Source of the DNA: a virus
Lineage: Duplodnaviria; Caudoviricetes
IMG/VR virus record: IMGVR_UViG_3300027754_000037
Reading direction: 5' to 3' (one strand)
Length of the DNA stretch: 64,000 bases
The notes beneath the pieces are model-generated. The model was not told the DNA's origin. It saw only the letters and a list, made by a program, of their open reading frames with translations, and ran no database searches. Numbering within the stretch: position 1 is the first letter of the stretch; each line of letters starts with the position of its first letter. The position numbers and the translations under genes are program-made. Positions 5,967 to 45,184 of the stretch are shown in pieces.

Positions 5967-6722
5967 ATGGGAATTCATAGAGGCACCACAAGACCAGATG
6001 GCAAAATGTTTTGGGCATATCGATTCAGATACGGCAAAAAAACAGAAATTTGGATCAAACCAGAACAGTACCAAAGACGAGAAAACACACGAATTGCCTA
6101 CTCAAAGAATAGAAACAATAAAATGCGTGAAAAACTTCAAGATATTCCTCCTGAAGAAAAAAATTATGTGGGAAAATATTGTCCTGAAAAAGGACTTTAT
6201 TTTTTAAAATATTATGTCAGCGGAAACGCAGTATACGGCACTTTAGAAGAACTCAAAACCTTCAGGTTGGCCCAAAAGAAAAGAAATAGAGAATATCTTG
6301 ATCGCTGCAAGGAACAGTTTCCATTACCCAATCTGTCTTTTGGCGATCAACACCCAAACGATCCAAACCTCTTTGTAATCGCTGTCCGTAGGAATAAATT
6401 ATTTTTTGGCTCCCGTGAACAATATGAATCTAAAAGACAAAGACTTAACGAATCCTATAAAAGATACAAGCAAAAAAATCGAGAAATAATCAAGATCAAA
6501 AATAAAAAAATTACTGAAGAAAAAACAAAGTTCCTTAATGAAAATCCTCACCTTAAAAGGTTCAGAGGTGATATTGATCCCCTTTTCAATAAGATATTCT
6601 GGGGATATAACTCCAGACACAACGAAGTCTGGCTTAAACCCGATGTTTACCATCAGAGAAGATTGCGGGCCAATAAAAGGACAAGCTTGCTTAAAAAGAA
6701 CAAAAAACTACCACAGCAATAA
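5967..6722 (+). CDS. Basic hypothetical protein with repeated G-x3-P-x4-F-x2-Y modules
   Basis: SD AAGGAGG; related segments GTTRPDGKMFWAY, GDQHPNDPNLFVI, GDIDPLFNKIFWGY. Confidence 0.6.
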   Translation: MGIHRGTTRPDGKMFWAYRFRYGKKTEIWIKPEQYQRRENTRIAYSKNRNNKMREKLQDIPPEEKNYVGKYCPEKGLYFLKYYVSGNAVYGTLEELKTFRLAQKKRNREYLDRCKEQFPLPNLSFGDQHPNDPNLFVIAVRRNKLFFGSREQYESKRQRLNESYKRYKQKNREIIKIKNKKITEEKTKFLNENPHLKRFRGDIDPLFNKIFWGYNSRHNEVWLKPDVYHQRRLRANKRTSLLKKNKKLPQQ

Positions 6723-6725
6723 TCA

Positions 6726-6908
6726 ATGATCCTTAAAGCAAATACTTATAGCAACAACAATTGTTTTGGATTTGATAATCCAAAATCAATTTGCTGGTCT
6801 ATTTCTAGGTCTTGGTCTTTGTCTTGGCTTTGGTCTTGGTCTTGGTCTTGGTCTTGGTCTAGGTCTGGGTGGTGGTCATCTCATGGAGCAGCAATATATG
6901 ATCCTTAA
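6726..6908 (+). CDS. Ser/Trp-rich paralog 1
   Basis: MILKANTYSNNNCFGFDNPKSICW followed by (SW)n. Confidence 0.55.
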   Translation: MILKANTYSNNNCFGFDNPKSICWSISRSWSLSWLWSWSWSWSWSRSGWWSSHGAAIYDP

Positions 6909-7113
6909 ATCAAATTCATATAGCAATAACAATTGCTTTGGATTTAATACTCCAAAATCAAATTGCTGGTCTATGTCTAGGTCTAGGTCTTGGTCTAGGG
7001 ATTGGGATTGGGATTGGTCTATGTCTATGTCTATGGATTGGTCTTGGTCTAGGTCTATGTCTAGGTCTAGGTCTTGGTCTTTTTGGTCTAAACATTGGAG
7101 TGCCAATATATGA
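6898..7113 (+). CDS. Ser/Trp-rich paralog 2
   Basis: MILKSNSYSNNNCFGFNTPKSNCW followed by S/R/W/M/D dipeptide repeats. Confidence 0.55.
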   Translation: MILKSNSYSNNNCFGFNTPKSNCWSMSRSRSWSRDWDWDWSMSMSMDWSWSRSMSRSRSWSFWSKHWSANI

Positions 7114-7343
7114 TCCTTAAAGCAAATACTTATAGCAATAACAGATGCTTTGGATTTAATACTCCAAAATCAAATTGCTGGTCTAGGTCTTGGTCTGGGT
7201 CTAGGTCTATGTTTAGGTCTATGTCTTGGTCTTGGTCTTGGTCTTGGTCTTGGTCTATGTCTATGTCTTGGTCTAGGTCTATGTCTAGGTCTATGTCTAG
7301 GTCTTGGTCTTTTTGGTCTAAACATTGGAGTGCCAATATATGA
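7110..7343 (+). CDS. Ser/Trp-rich paralog 3
   Basis: ATGA overlap; same leader. Confidence 0.55.
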   Translation: MILKANTYSNNRCFGFNTPKSNCWSRSWSGSRSMFRSMSWSWSWSWSWSMSMSWSRSMSRSMSRSWSFWSKHWSANI

Positions 7344-7576
7344 TCCTTAAAGCAAATACTTATAGCAACAACAAATGTTTTGGATTTAAATATCCAAAAT
7401 CAAATTGCTGGTCTAGGTCTTGGTCTGGGTCTAGGTCTATGTTTAGGTCTATGTCTTGGTCTTGGTCTTGGTCTTGGTCTATGTCTTGGTCTAGGGATTG
7501 GTCTATGTCTAGGTCTTGGACTTATTCTTTGTCTAGGTGTGAGTGGTGGTCATCTCATTGGAGCAGTAGCATATGA
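7340..7576 (+). CDS. Ser/Trp-rich paralog 4
   Basis: ATGA overlap; same leader. Confidence 0.55.
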   Translation: MILKANTYSNNKCFGFKYPKSNCWSRSWSGSRSMFRSMSWSWSWSWSMSWSRDWSMSRSWTYSLSRCEWWSSHWSSSI

Positions 7577-7752
7577 TCTTTAAAACAGCCGCTCATATTG
7601 ATAATTATTGTTTTGGATTTAATAATTCAAAATCTCTGTGCTGGTCTAATTCTAAATATAATTCTAATTCTTGGTCTTGGCTTTTTCCTTGGTCTCAGCT
7701 TTGGGTTAGATTTAAATCTAGATCTTGGTCTAGGTCTAGGTCTAGGTATTAG
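7573..7752 (+). CDS. Ser/Trp-rich paralog 5, divergent, probable premature TAG
   Basis: MIFKTAAHIDNYCFGFNNSKSLCW; homology continues (WSTHWSNNQ) past TAG 7750 to TGA 7780. Confidence 0.45.
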   Translation: MIFKTAAHIDNYCFGFNNSKSLCWSNSKYNSNSWSWLFPWSQLWVRFKSRSWSRSRSRY

Positions 7753-7778
7753 TGGTCAACTCATTGGAGTAATAATCA

Positions 7779-7901
7779 ATGATCCTTAAAACAAATAGCC
7801 ATAGCAATAACAGATGCTTTGGATTTAATAATCCAAAATCAAATTGCTGGTCTTGGTCTGGGGCTTGGTCTTGTTCTAAACATTGGAGCAGCAATCAATG
7901 A
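7779..7901 (+). CDS. Ser/Trp-rich paralog 6 (short)
   Basis: MILKTNSHSNNRCFGFNNPKSNCWSWSGAWSCSKHWSSNQ, read by hand. Confidence 0.45.
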   Translation: MILKTNSHSNNRCFGFNNPKSNCWSWSGAWSCSKHWSSNQ

Positions 7902-7914
7902 TAATCAATGAATT

Positions 7915-8916
7915 TCATGATTTCCTAACTAGATTTCCAAAGAATTGAGAAGTAGCATTATTCCAAGTATAATTTTTAAGCACATGCTCTCTGCAATTGT
8001 TATTTTGAATAAGATCATGACATTCTTTAACCGCAAAGCTCAAGTCAAAATTGGCACAACCTATTCGCTTGCCTCCTGCAACTATTTCACCAGCCCCTTT
8101 ACAATCGTAACAAGCTACTGGTAGTCCACAAGACATTGCTTCGATGTTGACCAGTCCAAATGTATCAAATTTGCTTGGGAAAACAAAGATGTCATGGGAA
8201 GCTAATTCGACAGCCAACTCTTCACCATGCAAGAATCCGGTAAATCTTACATCAGGGTGATAAAAAATACAATTTTCAAGACTTATTCCATCTCCAATTA
8301 TTGTCTTTTCATATCTGTTATCCAATTCTAGAAAATTTTTAATGCCTTTCTCTGGACTCACTCTACCACAATACACTAATTTCTTTCTTTGATTTCTTTC
8401 TTTTGGAATAGGCTTAAATAGCTCTGTGTCTACTCCCCTGCTCCATATTTTTATAGGTGCAGTAAATCCATAAGATTTAAGTATTAGTATATTTTGCTCA
8501 GTAGTAGCCATTACACATTCAGACTTATTATGAAACCATCTCAAATATTTCTTGGATAATCTTAGTCCAAATCCAAATGTTTTATAGAAGAAGTTTGGAA
8601 TATCTGTGTGATAAGCTGTGGTGAATTTATAACCTTTTTTAATACAATATTTTCTAACAGCTAATCCAATTATTCCTTCTGTGCTGATGTGAACATAATC
8701 AGCCCATTCTATTTTATCTTTGATTGTTTTAGTTCTGACCCAGTATGGAGAAAATACATCTTTGGTGAATGGAACTTTGAAACACCAGTAATCAGATGGA
8801 CAAATAACTTTTATAGTATGCCCCATCTCTTCTAATGTTTTTATTGTATTTTTTAATGTATTAACAACACCGTTCACTTGTGGCTCCCAAGCATCTGTAG
8901 CTATAAGTATATTCAT
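7915..8916 (-). CDS. GT4 glycosyltransferase, Agt-like (glyco-diacylglycerol synthase)
   Basis: N-terminus ILIATDAWEPQVNGVV; GRVSPEK; FPSKFDTFGLVNIEAMSCG. Confidence 0.85.
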   Translation of the reverse strand: MNILIATDAWEPQVNGVVNTLKNTIKTLEEMGHTIKVICPSDYWCFKVPFTKDVFSPYWVRTKTIKDKIEWADYVHISTEGIIGLAVRKYCIKKGYKFTTAYHTDIPNFFYKTFGFGLRLSKKYLRWFHNKSECVMATTEQNILILKSYGFTAPIKIWSRGVDTELFKPIPKERNQRKKLVYCGRVSPEKGIKNFLELDNRYEKTIIGDGISLENCIFYHPDVRFTGFLHGEELAVELASHDIFVFPSKFDTFGLVNIEAMSCGLPVACYDCKGAGEIVAGGKRIGCANFDLSFAVKECHDLIQNNNCREHVLKNYTWNNATSQFFGNLVRKS

Positions 8917-14858: not shown

Positions 14859-14943
14859 GGAAAAGTATCCAAGAGGACAAAGGATTTTGACCGTAAGTCA
14901 AAAGGGCTGAGACCATTCGTGAGTTCGACTCTCACCTTTTCCA
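14859..14943 (+). tRNA. tRNA-Tyr(GTA), long variable arm, atypical anticodon loop
   Basis: Acceptor GGAAAAG/CTTTTCC plus A73; T-arm GTGAG-TTCGACT-CTCAC; anticodon arm TTTGA-CCGTAAG-TCAAA. Confidence 0.75.
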
Positions 14944-17802: not shown

Positions 17803-17979
17803 TGATATCGGCTAGAAGCTTCAGTCATAGGCTTCTAGCCGATTTTTTCTGTTGGGATTTAGGGGAATTGTACCTACAGGATAAATGTCAAAAAACTCCT
17901 GAATTTAATTGTATTTTTGAAACGGAACTTCCGTATCACTTTGTCAGGTTTCAATTTAAAGAATTTAAAGGAGTTTGCA

Positions 17980-27238: not shown

Positions 27239-28264
27239 ATGATTAATTTTCCCGTGTTCCTGAATATTCCCGGCACCAAGCTGCCTGAAACCGGAATCTA
27301 CTATGTGGTTGCCAAGGACGGCATCTACATGAGGACAGACAGGAACTTTGGAAGTGCATTGGTCAAGGTTGAAGAAATTCCTCACCTTGCTGCTGCTCCC
27401 ACTCAAGCAAGTTTCAACCTTCCCAAGATTCCAGCAACGATCATTGGGCAGGCATTGATGTTCTTCCGTGAAGTGTTCGTTGAGTACAAAACGGAGAGCT
27501 ATTTGACCCTTCTGTATTCCAAGAAATTGGGTCAGTATCGTCTGTGGTGCCCCAAACAGGAAGTCAGCTACAGTTCTGTCAGCTATGACAGAACTGACAG
27601 CGTTCCTGTCGAGGAGCGGAATTACATGGGTAGCGATGGTCCCGGCTGGCAAAATGTGGGGACTATTCACTCCCATTGTGACTTCTCAGCTTTCCACAGC
27701 GGTACGGATGAGTTTGATGAATCCACCTTTGATGGAATTCACATCACCCTTGGCCATGTGAACCGCAATGATTTCAGCATTGTGGCTAGCATTGCCATCA
27801 ACGACAACCGCTTCCCGAAGGCGATTGCCGATGTGTGTGATGGTGTGCCCAACACTTCTTCCGAAGTTGTTGAGGAAGAGGGAGATGGTCCATTCAAAGG
27901 TCAGATATTCAAGCGTCAAGAGTTGTACCACCGTCTTGCGCTGAACGACGAGCAGCAGGCATGGTTGGAAAACGAATTGGAGATAACCATCCGAAATGAA
28001 TGGTTGCCCAAGGTCACTAGAAAGATCTCGAGACACCCCAAGGGAATTAGTCGCCTTGGACTGAGCGTGGAAGAGGTAGAGTGTGAGGAGTTCGAGTTCG
28101 ATGGACTGGAGCAGGGCTTGTTCCCTGACTCCGGTCCAAGGATCGAAGATGGAATATATGTTGATGAAGATGAGATATCATTTGATCCTACTGAACGGCA
28201 ACTCCGTAGTTTTGGATATCGTCGTGATGAACATGGTTTCAAGTATCGGCATGAAGGTGATTAG
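27239..28264 (+). CDS. JAB/JAMM metallopeptidase (PRTRC protein A-like deconjugase)
   Basis: YYVVAKDGIY, E..L, GTIHSHCDFSAFHSGTDEFDE fits the HxH-x7-S-x2-D motif. Confidence 0.85.
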   Translation: MINFPVFLNIPGTKLPETGIYYVVAKDGIYMRTDRNFGSALVKVEEIPHLAAAPTQASFNLPKIPATIIGQALMFFREVFVEYKTESYLTLLYSKKLGQYRLWCPKQEVSYSSVSYDRTDSVPVEERNYMGSDGPGWQNVGTIHSHCDFSAFHSGTDEFDESTFDGIHITLGHVNRNDFSIVASIAINDNRFPKAIADVCDGVPNTSSEVVEEEGDGPFKGQIFKRQELYHRLALNDEQQAWLENELEITIRNEWLPKVTRKISRHPKGISRLGLSVEEVECEEFEFDGLEQGLFPDSGPRIEDGIYVDEDEISFDPTERQLRSFGYRRDEHGFKYRHEGD

Positions 28265-28335
28265 TTCGGAAAATATTTTTTGAGTTAATTGTATTTTTGA
28301 AACGAAACTTCCTGTAGTCCTTTGTGGAGGTGTTA

Positions 28336-29073
28336 ATGGCAAACAACATCAAGGTGATTGGTGCTGGTGGCATAGGACTGTGCGTGTTGCCGGTCCTATG
28401 CCGGTTTTTAAACTTCGAGGACGAGACTTTTCCCGAACCTGTTCTCACCGTGGTTGACGGCGACCAGTACGAGGAGAATAATCGTGCTCGTCAAGAGTTC
28501 GAGGATTGTGGCCCCAAGTCAACCATCACGGTTGAGAGGTTGAGGGGTCAATTTCCTCGAATTGAGTTTAGAGACAAGTCCGAGTTCGTTGATGATGCGA
28601 ATGTCGGATTGATTGTCCGTGAAGGAGATGTGGTTTTACTCTGTGTGGACAACCACAAGAGTAGGAAGATCGTGAGTGATCGTGCTTGTCAGTTGCGCAA
28701 TGTCACCGTGATTAGTGGTGGTAATGACCGGACTGACGGCAATGTGCTCATCCACATTCGTCGTGGCGGGGTTGACTTGACCCCGCCATTGGCGAGTCAC
28801 TACCATCCCGAGATCAGTAATCCTACTGATCTCCATCCTCATGAGCACAATCAGCCGGGGAGTTGTTCCCGGCTTGCTGAGGAAGTTCCTCAGTTGGTGA
28901 TCATGAATAATCTAATCGCTGCAAAAATGCTTGCAGCTTTTTACACTCTCACCGATCCCGTGTTATATTCGGAACAGGTGGAAAAAAAACCGCATCGATA
29001 TGCGGAGGTGCTGTGTGATCTCAGCACTTTGACTAGTGTAGTTCGTGACCGGCATGTAAAAAGAGGAGCATGA
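28336..29073 (+). CDS. ThiF/E1-like adenylating enzyme
   Basis: VIGAGGIG, VDGDQYEENNRARQ, LLCVDNHKSR, SGGN, GSC..VPQL..N. Confidence 0.9.
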   Translation: MANNIKVIGAGGIGLCVLPVLCRFLNFEDETFPEPVLTVVDGDQYEENNRARQEFEDCGPKSTITVERLRGQFPRIEFRDKSEFVDDANVGLIVREGDVVLLCVDNHKSRKIVSDRACQLRNVTVISGGNDRTDGNVLIHIRRGGVDLTPPLASHYHPEISNPTDLHPHEHNQPGSCSRLAEEVPQLVIMNNLIAAKMLAAFYTLTDPVLYSEQVEKKPHRYAEVLCDLSTLTSVVRDRHVKRGA

Positions 29074-29381
29074 AAATGAGCGACCAAAATCAGAACCCCA
29101 CCAATGGTTTTGCCAACAGCCCTGATGCCCAGAGTGTCGATGTTCTAGGTGTGTTGAGCGGGTTACAGGCAAGCAACTGCAAGGTTGTTCACGGTGCTGC
29201 CGAGGGCATCCACCCAGTTGCCCTAAATAGCGTGAGTGCTGTTCGTGGGACATTTTCGGTGGCATACAACATCCCCGCTGACGCTTTGTCCTTTGTGGAT
29301 GGAGTTTCGGTTGCGGAAGATTACATCCTCCAGCCTAACGAAACGCTGGAGTTCATCAAGCAGGCGGGCGTGAAGGGTTAA
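29070..29381 (+). CDS. Ubiquitin-like (beta-grasp) protein ending AGVKG
   Basis: VDG..V..DYILQPNETLEFIKQAGVKG; overlaps the E1 stop; terminator follows at about 29404-29442. Confidence 0.75.
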   Translation: MKMSDQNQNPTNGFANSPDAQSVDVLGVLSGLQASNCKVVHGAAEGIHPVALNSVSAVRGTFSVAYNIPADALSFVDGVSVAEDYILQPNETLEFIKQAGVKG

Positions 29382-29559
29382 TCGCCCTTCGCCCGTTCTC
29401 TCTGCCCCCGCAAGGCCCACAAAGCCTTGCGGGGGTTTTTTATGTCGGGACCAAACTGCAAGCCTCAGAAAAATTCTAGAAAAAAATTGAATTTAATTGT
29501 ATTTTTGAAACAGAACTTCCTTATCACTTTGTATAGAGTTAAACAAAAGGAGGTGAGCC

Positions 29560-29898
29560 ATGACCAGTTCAGATCGCACTCCCAGCTACATTATCAAGGC
29601 TGTCCGTGCAGGGGCCAAAAAGGACAAAATTCTCGCCACCTATGCCGATGGGAGCACCGTGCTAGTGGTCAAGTCGGGAGGCAGCAAGTATGACCGGTTG
29701 GCAATTTACGGTCTATGTTCTAGGTGTCCTGAGTGGATTACAGGCACGGGCAAGAAAGGCTACTACTTCTGCCGCCTTGGGCCGAGCAGGAGCGTCAAGC
29801 TCCTTGATGGCGGGTTCAGTTGGAGTTACCCCAAGCCCGGTAAATTCGAGGGCTACCCGCTGGTCGGCTTGGTCACCATCGAAGATACCGCAGAATAG
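29560..29898 (+). CDS. Hypothetical protein
   Basis: SD AAGGAGG after promoter copy 11. Confidence 0.55.
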   Translation: MTSSDRTPSYIIKAVRAGAKKDKILATYADGSTVLVVKSGGSKYDRLAIYGLCSRCPEWITGTGKKGYYFCRLGPSRSVKLLDGGFSWSYPKPGKFEGYPLVGLVTIEDTAE

Positions 29899-29931
29899 AT
29901 ACCGATGTACGCTAAACAAGGGAGCAACACC

Positions 29932-30504: not shown

Positions 30505-30696
30505 ATGCTTCACCGCATGGATAATGGTGACATTTTGAATGTCAGTCACATCGTTAGCATCACCTTGAGTGGCGACTTCACAGTAGTTGCCTTGGTCAAC
30601 TCTCAAGAGTTTCATTACCGTGGCGACATTCGCAGCAAGTTGTTGATGGACTTCAACATCGTTCTAACCTCTCATGACAAAAGGAGTCAAATATGA
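30505..30696 (+). CDS. Hypothetical protein
   Basis: SD AAGGAGG. Confidence 0.5.
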   Translation: MLHRMDNGDILNVSHIVSITLSGDFTVVALVNSQEFHYRGDIRSKLLMDFNIVLTSHDKRSQI

Positions 30697-30914
30697 AAAT
30701 TGCACATGTGAGCTTCTCCAACTGGGGAGGCGTGGTGGAAGCCATGCTTATCCCCAAGGATGAGGAGGCAAGGGTCAAGTGGGTACGAATCCCCACAAAG
30801 CGGGTCAAGCACCCACACCGCAAGGCTCTGCGTTGGCTTGCGGCAAACCACCCACAGGCTAGCCATAGTTACCATGTGGAAACAGGTGCGTGTGGCCCCT
30901 GCGAGTACAACTGA
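30693..30914 (+). CDS. Hypothetical protein
   Basis: SD AAGGAG. Confidence 0.5.
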   Translation: MKIAHVSFSNWGGVVEAMLIPKDEEARVKWVRIPTKRVKHPHRKALRWLAANHPQASHSYHVETGACGPCEYN

Positions 30915-30969
30915 GAAAAGGTGGAGATTTTTGTTGATTTATCGTCCCAGATCGTGTTAAGGTAAGTTT

Positions 30970-31166
30970 GTCGCAGGGTGTCTGGGGGGTTGTAACTAAA
31001 CCCCTGTTGTAGTTGTGAGGTTTTTTCTTTTCCCTCTTACGATAAAAGCCTATAGGGATAAGCTCCTCCCTATCACCAGATATACATGGAAAAGCTTTTA
31101 TACCAACTGAATCAGAACAGGAATCGGTTCTGATGCTACAACAACAGCCCCTGCAACCTTTTTTTC
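30970..31166 (+). ncRNA. Candidate structured ncRNA of about 190 nt
   Basis: Nested helices GCAGGG/CCCTGC, GGGGTT/AACCCC, TGTTGTAG/CTACAACA, ATAAAAGC/GCTTTTAT, ATAGGGA/TCCCTAT, ATCAGAAC/GTTCTGAT; TTGATT-N17-(T)TAAGGT upstream; T-run downstream. Confidence 0.6.
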
Positions 31167-31288
31167 ACCAAAAGTCAAAAAACTTTTGCGTGTAATTGTA
31201 TTTAAGTCACAAAACTTCCGATTAGACATTAGGCAACCTGCACTTTGCAAGTTGCCTAATGTCTAATTTTAATCTTAAGGAGTTTCTC

Positions 31289-31747
31289 ATGAATTGGATC
31301 AATGATGTTTTTTCCGTTCTAAGCGCACGAAATGCACCTATCAATAAGAAAGTCAAAAAGCCCGTGCCGACCAACAGTATCCTGACTCTGTATCCTTACA
31401 AGTCTTATGGCACTTGGGTGTTTGATGACGCTGCTACAGGACTTGTCCGAGAAGCTTTTGTTCAAGGCATCCCAGAAATTCTAGAGAAAGCTCTTGAAGA
31501 TGCTGGCATACCTCTAGACGAGGCAGAAGATGGTTGCAGCCTAGTGTTCAGCAAAAATAAGTTCCCAGATGCTACTGTCGTGCTTACACGCCTTGAAGGT
31601 GACAAGTTTAACAAGAGCTATGAGGGTAACTGGTACGAATCTCAAGATGGACTGAAGGGGTGGTTGTGCCCCGCTCTGTTCTGTTACTTCCAAGAGGCCC
31701 CTGAGAAAATCTACTGCAAAGTAGGTTGCAAGCCCAAGAAAAAGTAA
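31289..31747 (+). CDS. DUF6717-like protein
   Basis: PYKSYGTWVFDD..GL.REAFV.G, GNWY, GWLCPAL..YF..P..IY. Confidence 0.75.
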   Translation: MNWINDVFSVLSARNAPINKKVKKPVPTNSILTLYPYKSYGTWVFDDAATGLVREAFVQGIPEILEKALEDAGIPLDEAEDGCSLVFSKNKFPDATVVLTRLEGDKFNKSYEGNWYESQDGLKGWLCPALFCYFQEAPEKIYCKVGCKPKKK

Positions 31748-31822
31748 TTAATTTAATTTTCAGAACCCACAGAAATGTTCTGTGGGTTCTTTTTTCACAG
31801 TTCAACCAAATAGGAGACGCAA

Positions 31823-34801: not shown

Positions 34802-34873
34802 AGCGGGTGAAGAGATTTGAACTCTCAACATTCTGCGTGGAAGGCAGACGCTCTACCGTTGAGCTACACCCGC
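34802..34873 (-). tRNA. tRNA-Gly(TCC)
   Basis: Acceptor GCGGGTG/CACCCGC plus U73; D-arm GCTC/GAGC; anticodon arm TCTGC-CTTCCAC-GCAGA; T-loop TTCAAAT; no encoded CCA. Confidence 0.9.
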
Positions 34874-43172: not shown

Positions 43173-43598
43173 CCCGCACCTACTGAGATTCTCCCAGCCC
43201 GCCACCCAGAAAGTGGCGGGCCTTTTTTTGTTTCATAAACAATACAGATAAAAGTAGTTTACTATTATTGTTTGTCTGGAAAATATATAAGATAAAAATA
43301 GTTTAAATATATTTTTACAAAAAAAATAATTAAACAATTAATAATGAAAAAGTTTTAGACTATGGGATACCCCCCTACCCCCCTACCCGCTATGACTGTC
43401 TTCCTTTTGATTCACTCCTTAGCCCTTTTTTGGCCACGGGGATTGTTGCAAATTTTCGTCCCCAACAATTTATGAATTATCCCATATGGGCTGGAAAGTC
43501 AATCGGGGTGGCATCCTAAAAAAATGCGCCGGGAGGTTTTTTGATTTTGGAGGGAGGGTTTTTGGGTGGTTTGGGAGGCGAAAAGAAGATTGTTTGTT

Positions 43599-43833
43599 CC
43601 TAGAGCAATAGGGGAAGCTCCTGAAGCAATAGGGGAAGCTCCTAGAGCAATAGGGGAAGCTCCTGAAGCAATAGGGGAAGCTCCTGAAGCAATAGGGGAA
43701 GCTCCTGAAGCAATGGGGGAAGCTCCTGAAGCAATGGGGGAAGCTCCTGAAGCAATGGGGGGAAGCTCCTGAAGCAATGGGGGGAAGCTCCTGAAGCAAT
43801 AGGGGAAGCTCCTGAATCAATGGGGGAAGCTCA
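43599..43833. repeat. About 11 x 21(22)-bp tandem array GCAAT(A/G)GGGGAAGCTCCT(GAA/AGA)
   Basis: Read directly; no spacers. Confidence 0.9.
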
Positions 43834-44700
43834 TCACTTTGGCAGGAAGACTCTTTTCATATGATCTAAATCTGTTTCAAAAGGGTTTTTGCTTGATCCC
43901 GGTATGTCCTTGATAACCTTTTCGAGACCTCCCTTGGAATCGACATTACGGAAGAACTCCAAATCCTTATCTGCTCTGCTTGTGCTTGGATAAACCGATC
44001 TGGCATCTATATTTCCAAATTGGTCCTTGGAGCTCCTGTTATAAGTTGGATCGTATCCAGAAGTTGTTGGCCTTAGAGCATCAAATGCTTGTCCTATCAA
44101 ATCATTAGCTTTTTCGCTGGAATCCATTAAGAATTTACCTGCTTTTTTGATTGGATCTGTCAATCCAAAAAGTTCTAAAGCTTTCTTTACCAGCCATATA
44201 GCTGCATCTGCTGAAGATTTGACAACTGCTTGGAAAGCTGGCCAAAGGTATTCGGTGCCTATCCATTTGAATAATGTTCCTATCTTGTCAGCAAGTGGTG
44301 CCAAGAAAGGGAAAAGAGACCTGATTGCGTCAAAGCGGAAACCAAGGTATATGATGGCAGCAACGAATGTGATCAATCCCACTTTCTTGATGATACTCCA
44401 GATCATGGAGAGTGGTCCGCTGGGTTTCTCGATTTTAGCCTCGTCTTCCTTTGTAATTTTGGCGTTTTTGGCTTGAGGAGACTTGGAGAGCATCTTCATG
44501 GCCAAACTTGGCAGGAAGAAGAATTCGTTTAATTTCTGGCATTCAATATCAACTATCATTCTTTCCTGAATGCTCATGCTGTTGTAGAGGTTATTGAGAA
44601 CTTTTTCCTCCAAGTCTTTGGATTCTTGGATGGACAATCCAGATTTTTTCAGGATGGACCTTTCTATTTCTTTGCAGCGATATTGATCAAGATTTAGCAT
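43834..44700 (-). CDS. Hypothetical protein with central hydrophobic/amphipathic segment
   Basis: Likely start MLNLDQY with SD AAGGA. Confidence 0.55.
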   Translation of the reverse strand: MLNLDQYRCKEIERSILKKSGLSIQESKDLEEKVLNNLYNSMSIQERMIVDIECQKLNEFFFLPSLAMKMLSKSPQAKNAKITKEDEAKIEKPSGPLSMIWSIIKKVGLITFVAAIIYLGFRFDAIRSLFPFLAPLADKIGTLFKWIGTEYLWPAFQAVVKSSADAAIWLVKKALELFGLTDPIKKAGKFLMDSSEKANDLIGQAFDALRPTTSGYDPTYNRSSKDQFGNIDARSVYPSTSRADKDLEFFRNVDSKGGLEKVIKDIPGSSKNPFETDLDHMKRVFLPK

Positions 44701-44779
44701 GGTTATATCCTTTTCTTTATATATCGGATGGAAATAAAAAAGGTTGCAATTTAAATTAATTGTTGTTAAAAAGTGAATT

Positions 44780-45184
44780 ATGCAAGAGCCTCTTACTTTA
44801 CATGAAGAAATTGTCAAGAAGTTGCGCAATCGTTCAGAGATTGCTTTCAAGGATTATTTCTGTGGTATGGTTAGGAATAGTGGTACAGAGTGCATCGATG
44901 GATATTTGATTTATTTCCCTGTTGGTGACAGATTTCTTTGCAAAGACGATGTGGACAATGTTCCGGGTAGTGGGGCTAGTGGTTTTGTGGGAGGTCACGC
45001 CGAAGAGTTTACGGTATTTCATGACTGTAGTGATGTGGCTATTGCTTACAAGAGGTGTCGAGAATCTTATAATAGAGCGGGCATGATCCATCCTAGGGGT
45101 TACTGTTGCAGAGTGGACTGGCATATCAACAAGGGTTTCAAGATATTAAATTTCAGCGCATTTGGGGTGGATAATGGGATGTGA
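44780..45184 (+). CDS. Hypothetical protein
   Basis: 134-aa ORF. Confidence 0.5.
   Translation: MQEPLTLHEEIVKKLRNRSEIAFKDYFCGMVRNSGTECIDGYLIYFPVGDRFLCKDDVDNVPGSGASGFVGGHAEEFTVFHDCSDVAIAYKRCRESYNRAGMIHPRGYCCRVDWHINKGFKILNFSAFGVDNGM

Follow-up and report, generated by a model that had tools for sequence, protein, structure and literature searches.

A predicted RNA of ~197 nt, encoded on the + strand of the window (the whole 64,000-nt stretch of phage DNA analysed here), has an eight-helix fold that compensatory changes have maintained across five lineages. The element is known from six sequences, namely the window copy and those of five metagenome contigs. On comparative grounds, the most apt description is a new family of phage-encoded structured RNA, whose reality is established in its sequence evolution and whose distribution is narrow. 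The alignments make it very probable that a structured RNA is under selection on the + strand. With less assurance, we lean towards reading the locus as an independent gene whose product is a stable structured non-coding RNA of ~195 nt, the first member to be recognised of an uncatalogued family restricted to a narrow clade of large uncultured phages.

The window belongs to a 144-kb IMG/VR entry with a completeness estimate of 33%, and the phage is therefore very large. Its genome is rich in terminators and repeats and is built of terminator–promoter–gene cassettes. A 374-nt gap without a credible ORF separates the stop of a 73-aa gene (30914) from the ATG of a DUF6717 gene (31289), and the structured element occupies the first half of this gap. 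Beyond its U-tract, a degenerate copy of a repeated promoter element, a long hairpin of ~21 bp and the ribosome-binding site of the DUF6717 gene follow in that order. The RNA is predicted to start 7–8 nt after the -10 hexamer and to end within the U-tract. The surrounding region of the genome is dense in small unknown genes, and the RNA sits beside a ubiquitin-like conjugation cassette. The features of the locus are as follows.

30934–30939, + strand: -35-like hexamer TTGATT (TTGATY or TTGCTT in four of six copies; not conserved in contigs L092 and L093)
30955–30963, + strand: extended -10 element, TGT then TAAGGT (hexamer at 30958–30963); the 18-nt spacer from the -35 ends in TGT
30970–31166, + strand: predicted RNA, ~197 nt, based on fold, covariance-model matches in five other contigs and covariation
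31159–31165, + strand: U-tract of seven T, 4 nt past the closing helix P1, read as an intrinsic-terminator-type 3' end
31170–31220, + strand: degenerate copy of a 20-copy promoter-like element (repeat family D2; 76% identity with the reference copy), presumed to be the promoter of the DUF6717 gene
31220–31269, + strand: long hairpin in the DUF6717 5' leader, just before the AAGGAG site; folds in five lineages from differing sequences
31289–31747, + strand: DUF6717 gene (Pfam PF20475), 152 aa from the ATG at 31289, at which its homologs also begin

An initial annotation, made from the nucleotide sequence, had proposed a stand-alone multibranched RNA without an ORF and listed six compatible helices. 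All six are present in the MFE fold of 30970–31166, one of them (31005–31012 with 31136–31143) displaced by one base, and the fold comprises eight helices in total. The MFE, centroid and consensus structures alike are multibranched with four branch points, which bears out the claim that the RNA is not a simple rod of the 6S type. The absence of an ORF likewise holds, as the longest + strand frame inside the element is 31 aa and has no ribosome-binding site. Nor is the element a tRNA or tmRNA, as ARAGORN finds only a tRNA-Tyr at 14859 and a tRNA-Gly at 34802 in the window. The helices are listed with their variation among the six copies.

30973–30984 with 31145–31154, + strand: P1, closing helix of 10 pairs; one covarying pair (G-C to A-U in L092 and L093), the others invariant
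30985–30991 with 30999–31005, + strand: P2, hairpin of 7 bp; loop length 7 to 21 nt; double changes at four of seven pairs
31006–31013 with 31135–31142, + strand: P3, 8 pairs, 100% paired; one double-change pair
31014–31020 with 31035–31041, + strand: P4, weak hairpin with three G-U pairs; 86% of cells paired
31042–31049 with 31094–31101, + strand: P5, 8-bp stem enclosing P5a and P5b; double changes at six of eight pairs
31052–31058 with 31067–31073, + strand: P5a, loop with an invariant CUCC; double changes at five of seven pairs
31076–31078 with 31087–31089, + strand: P5b, loop length variable; double changes at two of three pairs
31111–31118 with 31127–31134, + strand: P6, hairpin with an 8-bp stem; all 8 pairs identical in all six copies
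31135–31154, + strand: 3' strands of P3 and P1, placed by alignment and fold

The helices differ in how they vary. In P2, the four double changes are those of the L092 copy, and the basal G-U is present in all six copies; two pairs of P3 are conserved as G-U or U-G. The loop of P4 is pyrimidine-rich and varies in length and sequence among copies. The 8-nt loop of P6, AGGAAKCG, has a single variable position (U or G), the rest being fixed. Sequence is thus fixed in three parts of the RNA: hairpin P6 including its loop, the adjoining junctions together with the 3' strands of P3 and P1, and the CUCC of the P5a loop. The alignment of the six copies contains one conserved GGA in a loop (P6) and one in a junction.

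Folding energy was compared with dinucleotide-shuffled controls, a check that the initial annotation had named together with an Rfam scan and homolog covariation. The MFE of the window copy is -63.5 kcal/mol, that of the shuffles averages -46.3 (z -4.0), and none of 200 shuffles folds as well. The - strand of the element folds equally well (z -4.2). Among 70 random 197-nt windows of the same genome, the mean z is -0.74 (sd 1.45) and two (~3%) reach -4; in a regression of folding energy on G+C, the element lies only ~1.7 sd below genomic windows, and a genome-wide scan based on this regression did not single it out. Because the genome itself is structure-rich, folding energy alone is suggestive rather than decisive. 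Lone-sequence folds of divergent copies nevertheless give the same helix arrangement, with z -5.9 for L092, -4.8 for L093 and -3.0 for L110.

Homologous copies were reached through DUF6717 protein homologs, which led to contig L002; a covariance model (R1) built from the window and L002 copies was then run on loci near the closer DUF6717 genes, drawn from JGI metagenomes and cluster members. L002 is ~92–93% identical to the window in DNA overall and 98.4% identical in the RNA, where its three substitutions all fall at unpaired positions. R1 gave full-length matches in L110 (173 bits), L111 (164 bits), L093 (116 bits) and L092 (91 bits). The next gene downstream, 100–130 nt from the RNA, encodes DUF6717 in each of the six copies. 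Two additional contigs, P0002 and P0121, have a gap of ~347–348 nt before the DUF6717 gene and probably hold further copies. A 105-nt model match in L067–L069 was rejected as spurious, as its alignment covers only P2 and part of P1.

The distribution of the RNA is narrow. All copies found lie upstream of DUF6717 genes whose products share at least ~79% identity with that of the window. A close DUF6717 relative on contig P0003 is preceded by a 50-nt gap without the RNA, and syntenic but more distant relatives likewise lack it, with gaps of 60 nt (L011, L012) or ~100 nt (L086–L091). An improved model, R2, found no match in ~100 loci around other DUF6717 genes, and R1 and R2 found none in two related viral records (340 kb and 46 kb) that were reached via a 524-aa neighbour gene at 63–65% identity. 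No DNA match was detected among INPHARED public phage genomes in near or distant mode. In IMG/VR, single-protein queries with the two flanking genes returned no relative, and an alignment query for DUF6717 returned 70 loci, none of which exceeds 48% identity or carries the RNA. Neither IMG/VR nor the GTDB species genomes contain the invariant P6 24-mer, and IMG/VR contains no exact copy of the repeated promoter motif of the phage. The RNA has no paralog elsewhere in the 144-kb record. At 43556–43868, a 21-nt tandem repeat resembles the 5' strand and loop of P5a and was set aside as a coincidence because it lies inside a coding repeat.

No Rfam family matches the RNA in any lineage. When the whole window was scanned with Rfam 15 (4227 covariance models) at gathering thresholds, the sole match was the tRNA at 34802–34873. 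A permissive scan of 30800–31400 (E up to 10) returned unrelated miRNA and snoRNA noise far below gathering scores, and the only match overlapping the RNA was a weak, sub-threshold one to snR66 (17.9 bits, E 7.1). Scans of four divergent copies gave no match on the RNA.

The principal evidence is covariation across the six related sequences, which represent five lineages, so that part of each count reflects shared history. In the model-guided alignment, both sides have changed at 21 of 58 pairs, distributed over the helices as listed above, with none in P6. Standard pairs occupy 97.7% of pair cells, compared with 35–51% when the 3' partners are slid by 1–3 columns, and all 500 shuffles fall short on every one of the five measures used. 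Because a model-guided alignment leans towards its model, the comparison was repeated with a structure-naive control, in which a plain MAFFT alignment was folded by RNAalifold. The same architecture was recovered with 10 covarying pairs, P5 covarying likewise; 92% of cells were paired, compared with 40–50% in slid controls, and none of 500 shuffles scored as high on four of the five measures. The L092 copy is just 53% identical to the window copy, yet its lone-sequence architecture is the same. Compensatory substitutions across homologs, the general criterion for a structured functional RNA, are therefore present in this family.

The same alignment indicates the strand. Pair cells include 32 G-U against four A-C combinations, and several G-U pairs occur in all six copies; standard pairing is 97.7% when read on the + strand and 89.5% on the - strand. 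The excess of G-U over A-C therefore points to the + strand as the sense of the RNA, the orientation that the promoter and the U-tract share.

Conservation of the RNA can be set against that of the adjacent DUF6717 gene, whose third codon positions are 43–57% identical between divergent lineages and hence near saturation. Between the same divergent lineages, the RNA is 62–87% identical overall (53–60% pairwise among the three deepest), and its 3' half, which begins with the junction preceding P6 and extends through P1, is 87–96% identical. In the comparison with L002, third codon positions are 79% identical and the RNA 98.4%.

The signals that flank the element suggest that it is probably its own transcription unit. 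The sigma70-like promoter and the terminal T-run noted in the initial annotation were both confirmed as sequence features. The extended -10 element opens with the block TCGTGTTA, identical in all six copies. The hexamers that follow in the different copies are TAAGGT, TAGACT, TAAAGT, TAAAAT and TAAGAT; T1, A2 and T6 are kept and positions 3–5 vary. The distance from the end of the -10 element to P1 is 9–10 nt in every copy, and the sequence upstream of the extended -10 element is unalignable between lineages. A TGn followed by TAnnnT, conserved and suitably placed, is the pattern of a sigma-70 extended -10 promoter, and activity is predicted from this pattern. Extended -10 promoters tolerate a poor -35. 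A generic promoter scan missed the site because the -10 hexamer matches at only three of six positions. As the initial annotation also stated, this promoter is distinct from the 20-copy element of the phage, of which a degenerate copy lies after the T-run. The genes upstream differ among lineages: a 73-aa gene in the window and L002, a 46-aa gene and a 55-nt repeated element in L093, and other sequence in L092, L110 and L111.

At the 3' end, a run of 5–7 T follows P1 by 2–4 nt in all six copies. The candidate terminator thus consists of the G+C-rich, 10-bp P1, a long-range helix (~170–180 nt enclosed), and the U-tract; a generic scan makes no call here. For a terminator stem, a closing helix that spans 180 nt is unusual, and the other terminators in the window are simple hairpins, such as that at 31762–31790. 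In the lineages examined (the window group and L093), the U-tract and the DUF6717 gene are separated by a promoter-type element. In L093 this position is taken by a repeated promoter-type motif of its own, which recurs downstream of the DUF6717 terminator, before the next gene.

Because the RNA and the DUF6717 gene are always adjacent, the main rival explanation is a cis-acting 5' leader of that gene, resembling an attenuator or riboswitch, in which most transcription from the extended -10 promoter would halt at P1 and the U-tract unless a ligand, a protein or a phage antiterminator permitted read-through. The constant spacing of 100–130 nt in all six copies, kept despite differing upstream genes, is what such a leader would display, and attenuation classically has this order of promoter, structured RNA, U-tract and gene. 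It is also compatible with the degenerate state of the intervening promoter-element copy in the window group and with the second conserved hairpin in the DUF6717 leader. We nevertheless consider a leader unlikely. A promoter-type element intervenes before the gene in the lineages examined, and the recurrence of the L093 motif after the DUF6717 terminator argues in the same direction. Inspection of the alignment and of the lone-sequence folds revealed no conserved antiterminator pairing; the single candidate alternative, between the 5' strand of P1 and the 3' strand of P2, is not kept in L092. We know of no riboswitch in which the closing helix of the aptamer itself serves as the terminator stem, and DUF6717 genes in all other contexts examined occur without the element. 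On balance, action in trans is somewhat favoured over a leader function.

Action in trans could also mean base pairing, with the CUCC of P5a, and possibly the C-rich P4, blocking GGAG-type ribosome-binding sites of phage or host mRNAs. Although CUCC is fixed in all six P5a loops above a covarying stem, and phage genes carry strong AAGGAG sites, four nucleotides offer little specificity. An antisense search of the 144-kb record gave a best non-self match of 13 nt (E 0.33), and duplex prediction against the DUF6717 start region found no conserved site. Moreover, the most conserved part of the RNA, comprising P6 and the 3' half, is internally paired, unlike a typical seed. A base-pairing sRNA is accordingly given a low probability.

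A further reading, an elaborate terminator or insulator of the upstream operon without a separate RNA function, appears very improbable. It would suit a phage made of terminator–promoter–gene cassettes and an element that ends in a U-tract, but the other terminators here are simple hairpins, and 58 conserved pairs, an invariant internal hairpin and a conserved promoter in front would all be superfluous. The element is, in addition, kept while the upstream genes differ by lineage.

The exact, never-varying palindrome of P6 (8-N8-8), together with the equal folding of both strands in the window copy, could instead be taken to indicate an element that works as DNA, for example an operator, origin or packaging site, with P6 as the site of a dimeric protein. 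The 32 G-U against four A-C cells, with several G-U pairs in all six copies, form a strand-specific signal that is meaningless for duplex DNA; the long-range helices covary, unlike DNA-binding sites, and the 144-kb record contains no second P6 site. The probability of a DNA-level function is therefore slight. Least credible is a small protein gene from the ATG at 31132–31134, at the 3' foot of P6 and 10 nt after the loop AGGA: all six copies have the AGGA-preceded ATG and differ little in the first six codons, but this short ORF was rejected because codons 3–5 lack synonymous change despite near-saturated neighbouring third positions and the frame in each copy runs past the U-tract before it meets a stop, while the only variable codon changes together with its P3 partners and the frame diverges in length and sequence after codon 7.

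For the stand-alone RNA that we favour, the neighbouring protein is a possible partner. The RNA has the DUF6717 gene beside it in every one of the five lineages, while the rest of the neighbourhood changes; DUF6717 is also common without the RNA, and in other genomes it occurs near an RNA ligase. A literature search found no published function for DUF6717. An AlphaFold model of the protein (mean pLDDT 81.5) gave no Foldseek match against the PDB at E 0.001 or better. In an exhaustive structural comparison, the top four matches were Rpb8/Rpo8 RNA polymerase subunits (Z 5.4–6.5, ~100 residues aligned, rmsd 3.1–3.7), and the next chain scored 4.1. This likeness is too weak to claim a relationship, falling within the range of common beta-barrel arrangements, and is treated as a lead only. 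The DUF6717 proteins of RNA-bearing lineages carry a basic N-terminal extension of ~25 residues, which is missing in P0003 and P0128, the closest RNA-less relatives; since one deletion could explain both absences, extension and RNA provide one contrast only. A more speculative proposal, to which we attach little confidence, is that the RNA and the DUF6717 protein form a previously unrecognised phage ribonucleoprotein, in which P6 would be bound by the Rpb8-like double beta-barrel or by the basic N-terminal tail and which would target host RNA metabolism or defence early in infection.

Several known systems share features with the element. The phi29-type pRNA (RF00044) is likewise a phage-encoded structured RNA with a host-type promoter and a fold kept by covariation at little sequence identity. 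Such pRNAs are 120–174 nt long, have their own host-type promoter and work in a protein complex. They belong to small Bacillus podoviruses, however, and differ from the element in helix layout, in intermolecular loop pairing and in their position at the genome end; a scan with RF00044 gave no match at E up to 10, and nothing ties the element to packaging. The 6S RNA (RF00013) is comparable in its similar size, stability and paired 5' and 3' ends. It forms an extended rod whose central bubble imitates an open promoter, whereas the element is an eight-helix multibranched structure without an RF00013 match. Y RNAs (YrlA), which associate with Ro60/Rsr, resemble the element in their end-to-end terminal helix and modular multi-stem body. 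They are protein-bound stable RNAs and are sometimes phage-encoded. The element differs in having no tRNA-like module and no Rfam match, and no TROVE/Ro60 match was found in the 144-kb record, which is ~33% complete; a host protein could serve instead.

Among regulatory RNAs, the C-rich-loop sRNAs (RsaE, RoxS, sX13 and the RNAIII hairpins) share an invariant C-rich motif in a hairpin loop, here CUCC. They are smaller and carry several such loops, whereas the strongest conservation of the element is in a paired hairpin and no target was found. A sub-threshold sX13 match occurs in L093 at 271–370, off the RNA. CsrB/RsmZ sponges require many loop GGA motifs, compared with one conserved loop GGA in the element, and no csrA gene was found in the 144-kb record. 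The order promoter, RNA gene, terminator and protein gene is that of ToxI–ToxN type III loci. In type III toxin–antitoxin systems, the terminator sets the RNA-to-protein ratio. Unlike ToxI, the element has no tandem repeat array, and DUF6717 is not a ToxN-type endoribonuclease and is widespread without the RNA. Attenuation leaders and riboswitches also place a structured RNA behind a promoter and ahead of a U-tract and a gene, but the element differs in its extra promoter-type element, in having no conserved alternative pairing and in matching no Rfam riboswitch or leader. No RVT_1 match was found in the 144-kb record, and hence no adjacent reverse transcriptase of the retron or DRT type. A literature search on phage structured RNAs found nothing related.

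In the reading that we favour, host RNA polymerase would start at ~30970 from the sigma-70-type extended -10 promoter, and transcription would end at the candidate terminator formed by P1 and the U-tract, freeing the RNA. Pairing of the 5' and 3' ends would protect it, as in other stable RNAs, and the covarying helices would serve as a scaffold. The working part would be the invariant P6 hairpin with the 3' half, possibly together with the CUCC loop of P5a, and would most likely be a protein recognition site. The P6 helix is taken to be read by its sequence because it never covaries while nearby neutral sites are saturated, and a protein-bound RNA is preferred because a hairpin-recognising protein is the commonest cause of a frozen helix. 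Protein binding rather than base pairing is accordingly proposed as the mode of action, tentatively and with less than even confidence overall. The invariance of P6 may also reflect pairing to an invariant target. The UCC of the P5a loop and the GGA of the P6 loop, both loops being invariant, could form a loop–loop contact. Bound to protein, the RNA would act in trans during infection as a scaffold, cofactor or decoy, and the locus would be a further promoter–gene–terminator cassette, with an RNA product and a host-type promoter distinct from the repeated one.

To our knowledge, very few phage-encoded structured RNAs besides tRNAs are understood. Those that are, among them the phi29 packaging RNA and the HK022 put antiterminator, have each brought a new mechanism to light. 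The element described here adds a well-defined candidate from very large uncultured phages, with an eight-helix fold backed by covariation, clear promoter signals and a candidate terminator. The invariant P6 hairpin offers a handle for pulldown and mutagenesis, and the covariance model obtained can be used for metagenome mining. As the RNA lies in a region of small unknown genes beside a ubiquitin-like conjugation cassette, it may plausibly take part in host takeover or counter-defence.

The AAGGAG site of the DUF6717 gene (window 31289-31747, plus strand), the next gene downstream of the predicted structured RNA, is directly preceded by a long hairpin lying within the 5' leader. This hairpin was found in all five lineages that carry the RNA, with differing sequences and with G-U pairs included in the stem:

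Window 31220-31269, long leader hairpin of the DUF6717 gene
L110 405-448, same element
L111 500-528, same element
L093 2344-2388, same element
L092 790-834, same element

The window copy forms ~21 bp with no mismatches (z -6.95), whereas the copy in L002, a close relative of the window phage, contains several. The hairpin may represent a processing or stability element of the DUF6717 mRNA. As for the encoded protein, an exhaustive structural search with its AlphaFold model returned Rpb8/Rpo8, an RNA polymerase subunit, as the top four PDB matches (Z 5.4-6.5). Two further contigs, L005 and L006, encode an RNA ligase four genes downstream of a DUF6717 gene.

Repeated sequences were recorded in the window and in the L093 phage at the following positions:

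Window 16648-42541, promoter-like repeat of ~50 nt, 20 copies (e.g. 17883-17933 and 29471-29521)
L093 1850-1895 and 2055-2100, 55-nt repeat unit with a small hairpin
L093 2311-2328 and 2929-2950, motif following terminator U-tracts
Window 6721-7930, large tandem array with units of ~172-233 nt
Window 43556-43868, 11 tandem repeats of 21 nt, over minus-strand ORFs 43470-43820 and 43834-44850

The promoter-like repeat retains a conserved core and lies upstream of most genes within its range, the copy at 31170-31220, between the U-tract of the RNA and the DUF6717 gene, being degenerate. Near-identical copies also occur in L007 (2480-2920), a G+C-rich, unrelated-looking contig, where they sit in tandem units of ~220 nt within a 1.1-kb gene-free stretch. 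In L093, both repeated elements are intergenic; the 55-nt unit precedes each of two successive transcription units, and the second motif, located after the U-tracts of two terminators, looks like this phage's counterpart of the repeated promoter.

Units of the large tandem array are each packed with 12-nt sub-repeats (27 registers), and the array overlaps only short ORFs. Read on the minus strand, the 21-nt repeats would, if translated, yield a seven-residue peptide repeat. Their unit resembles the 5' strand and loop of P5a, a hairpin of the RNA fold at 31052-31073 (6 + 8 matching bases); this likeness was taken as coincidence.

Immediately upstream of the RNA/DUF6717 locus lies a further gene group identified by Pfam matches:

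Window 27239-29381, JAB-like and ThiF/E1-like genes with small downstream genes

Two small-gene segments of the window, 29427-29900 (~470 nt) and 30505-30696 (~190 nt), are missing from L002, a sign that these early-region cassettes are gained and lost between phages ~93% identical to each other.
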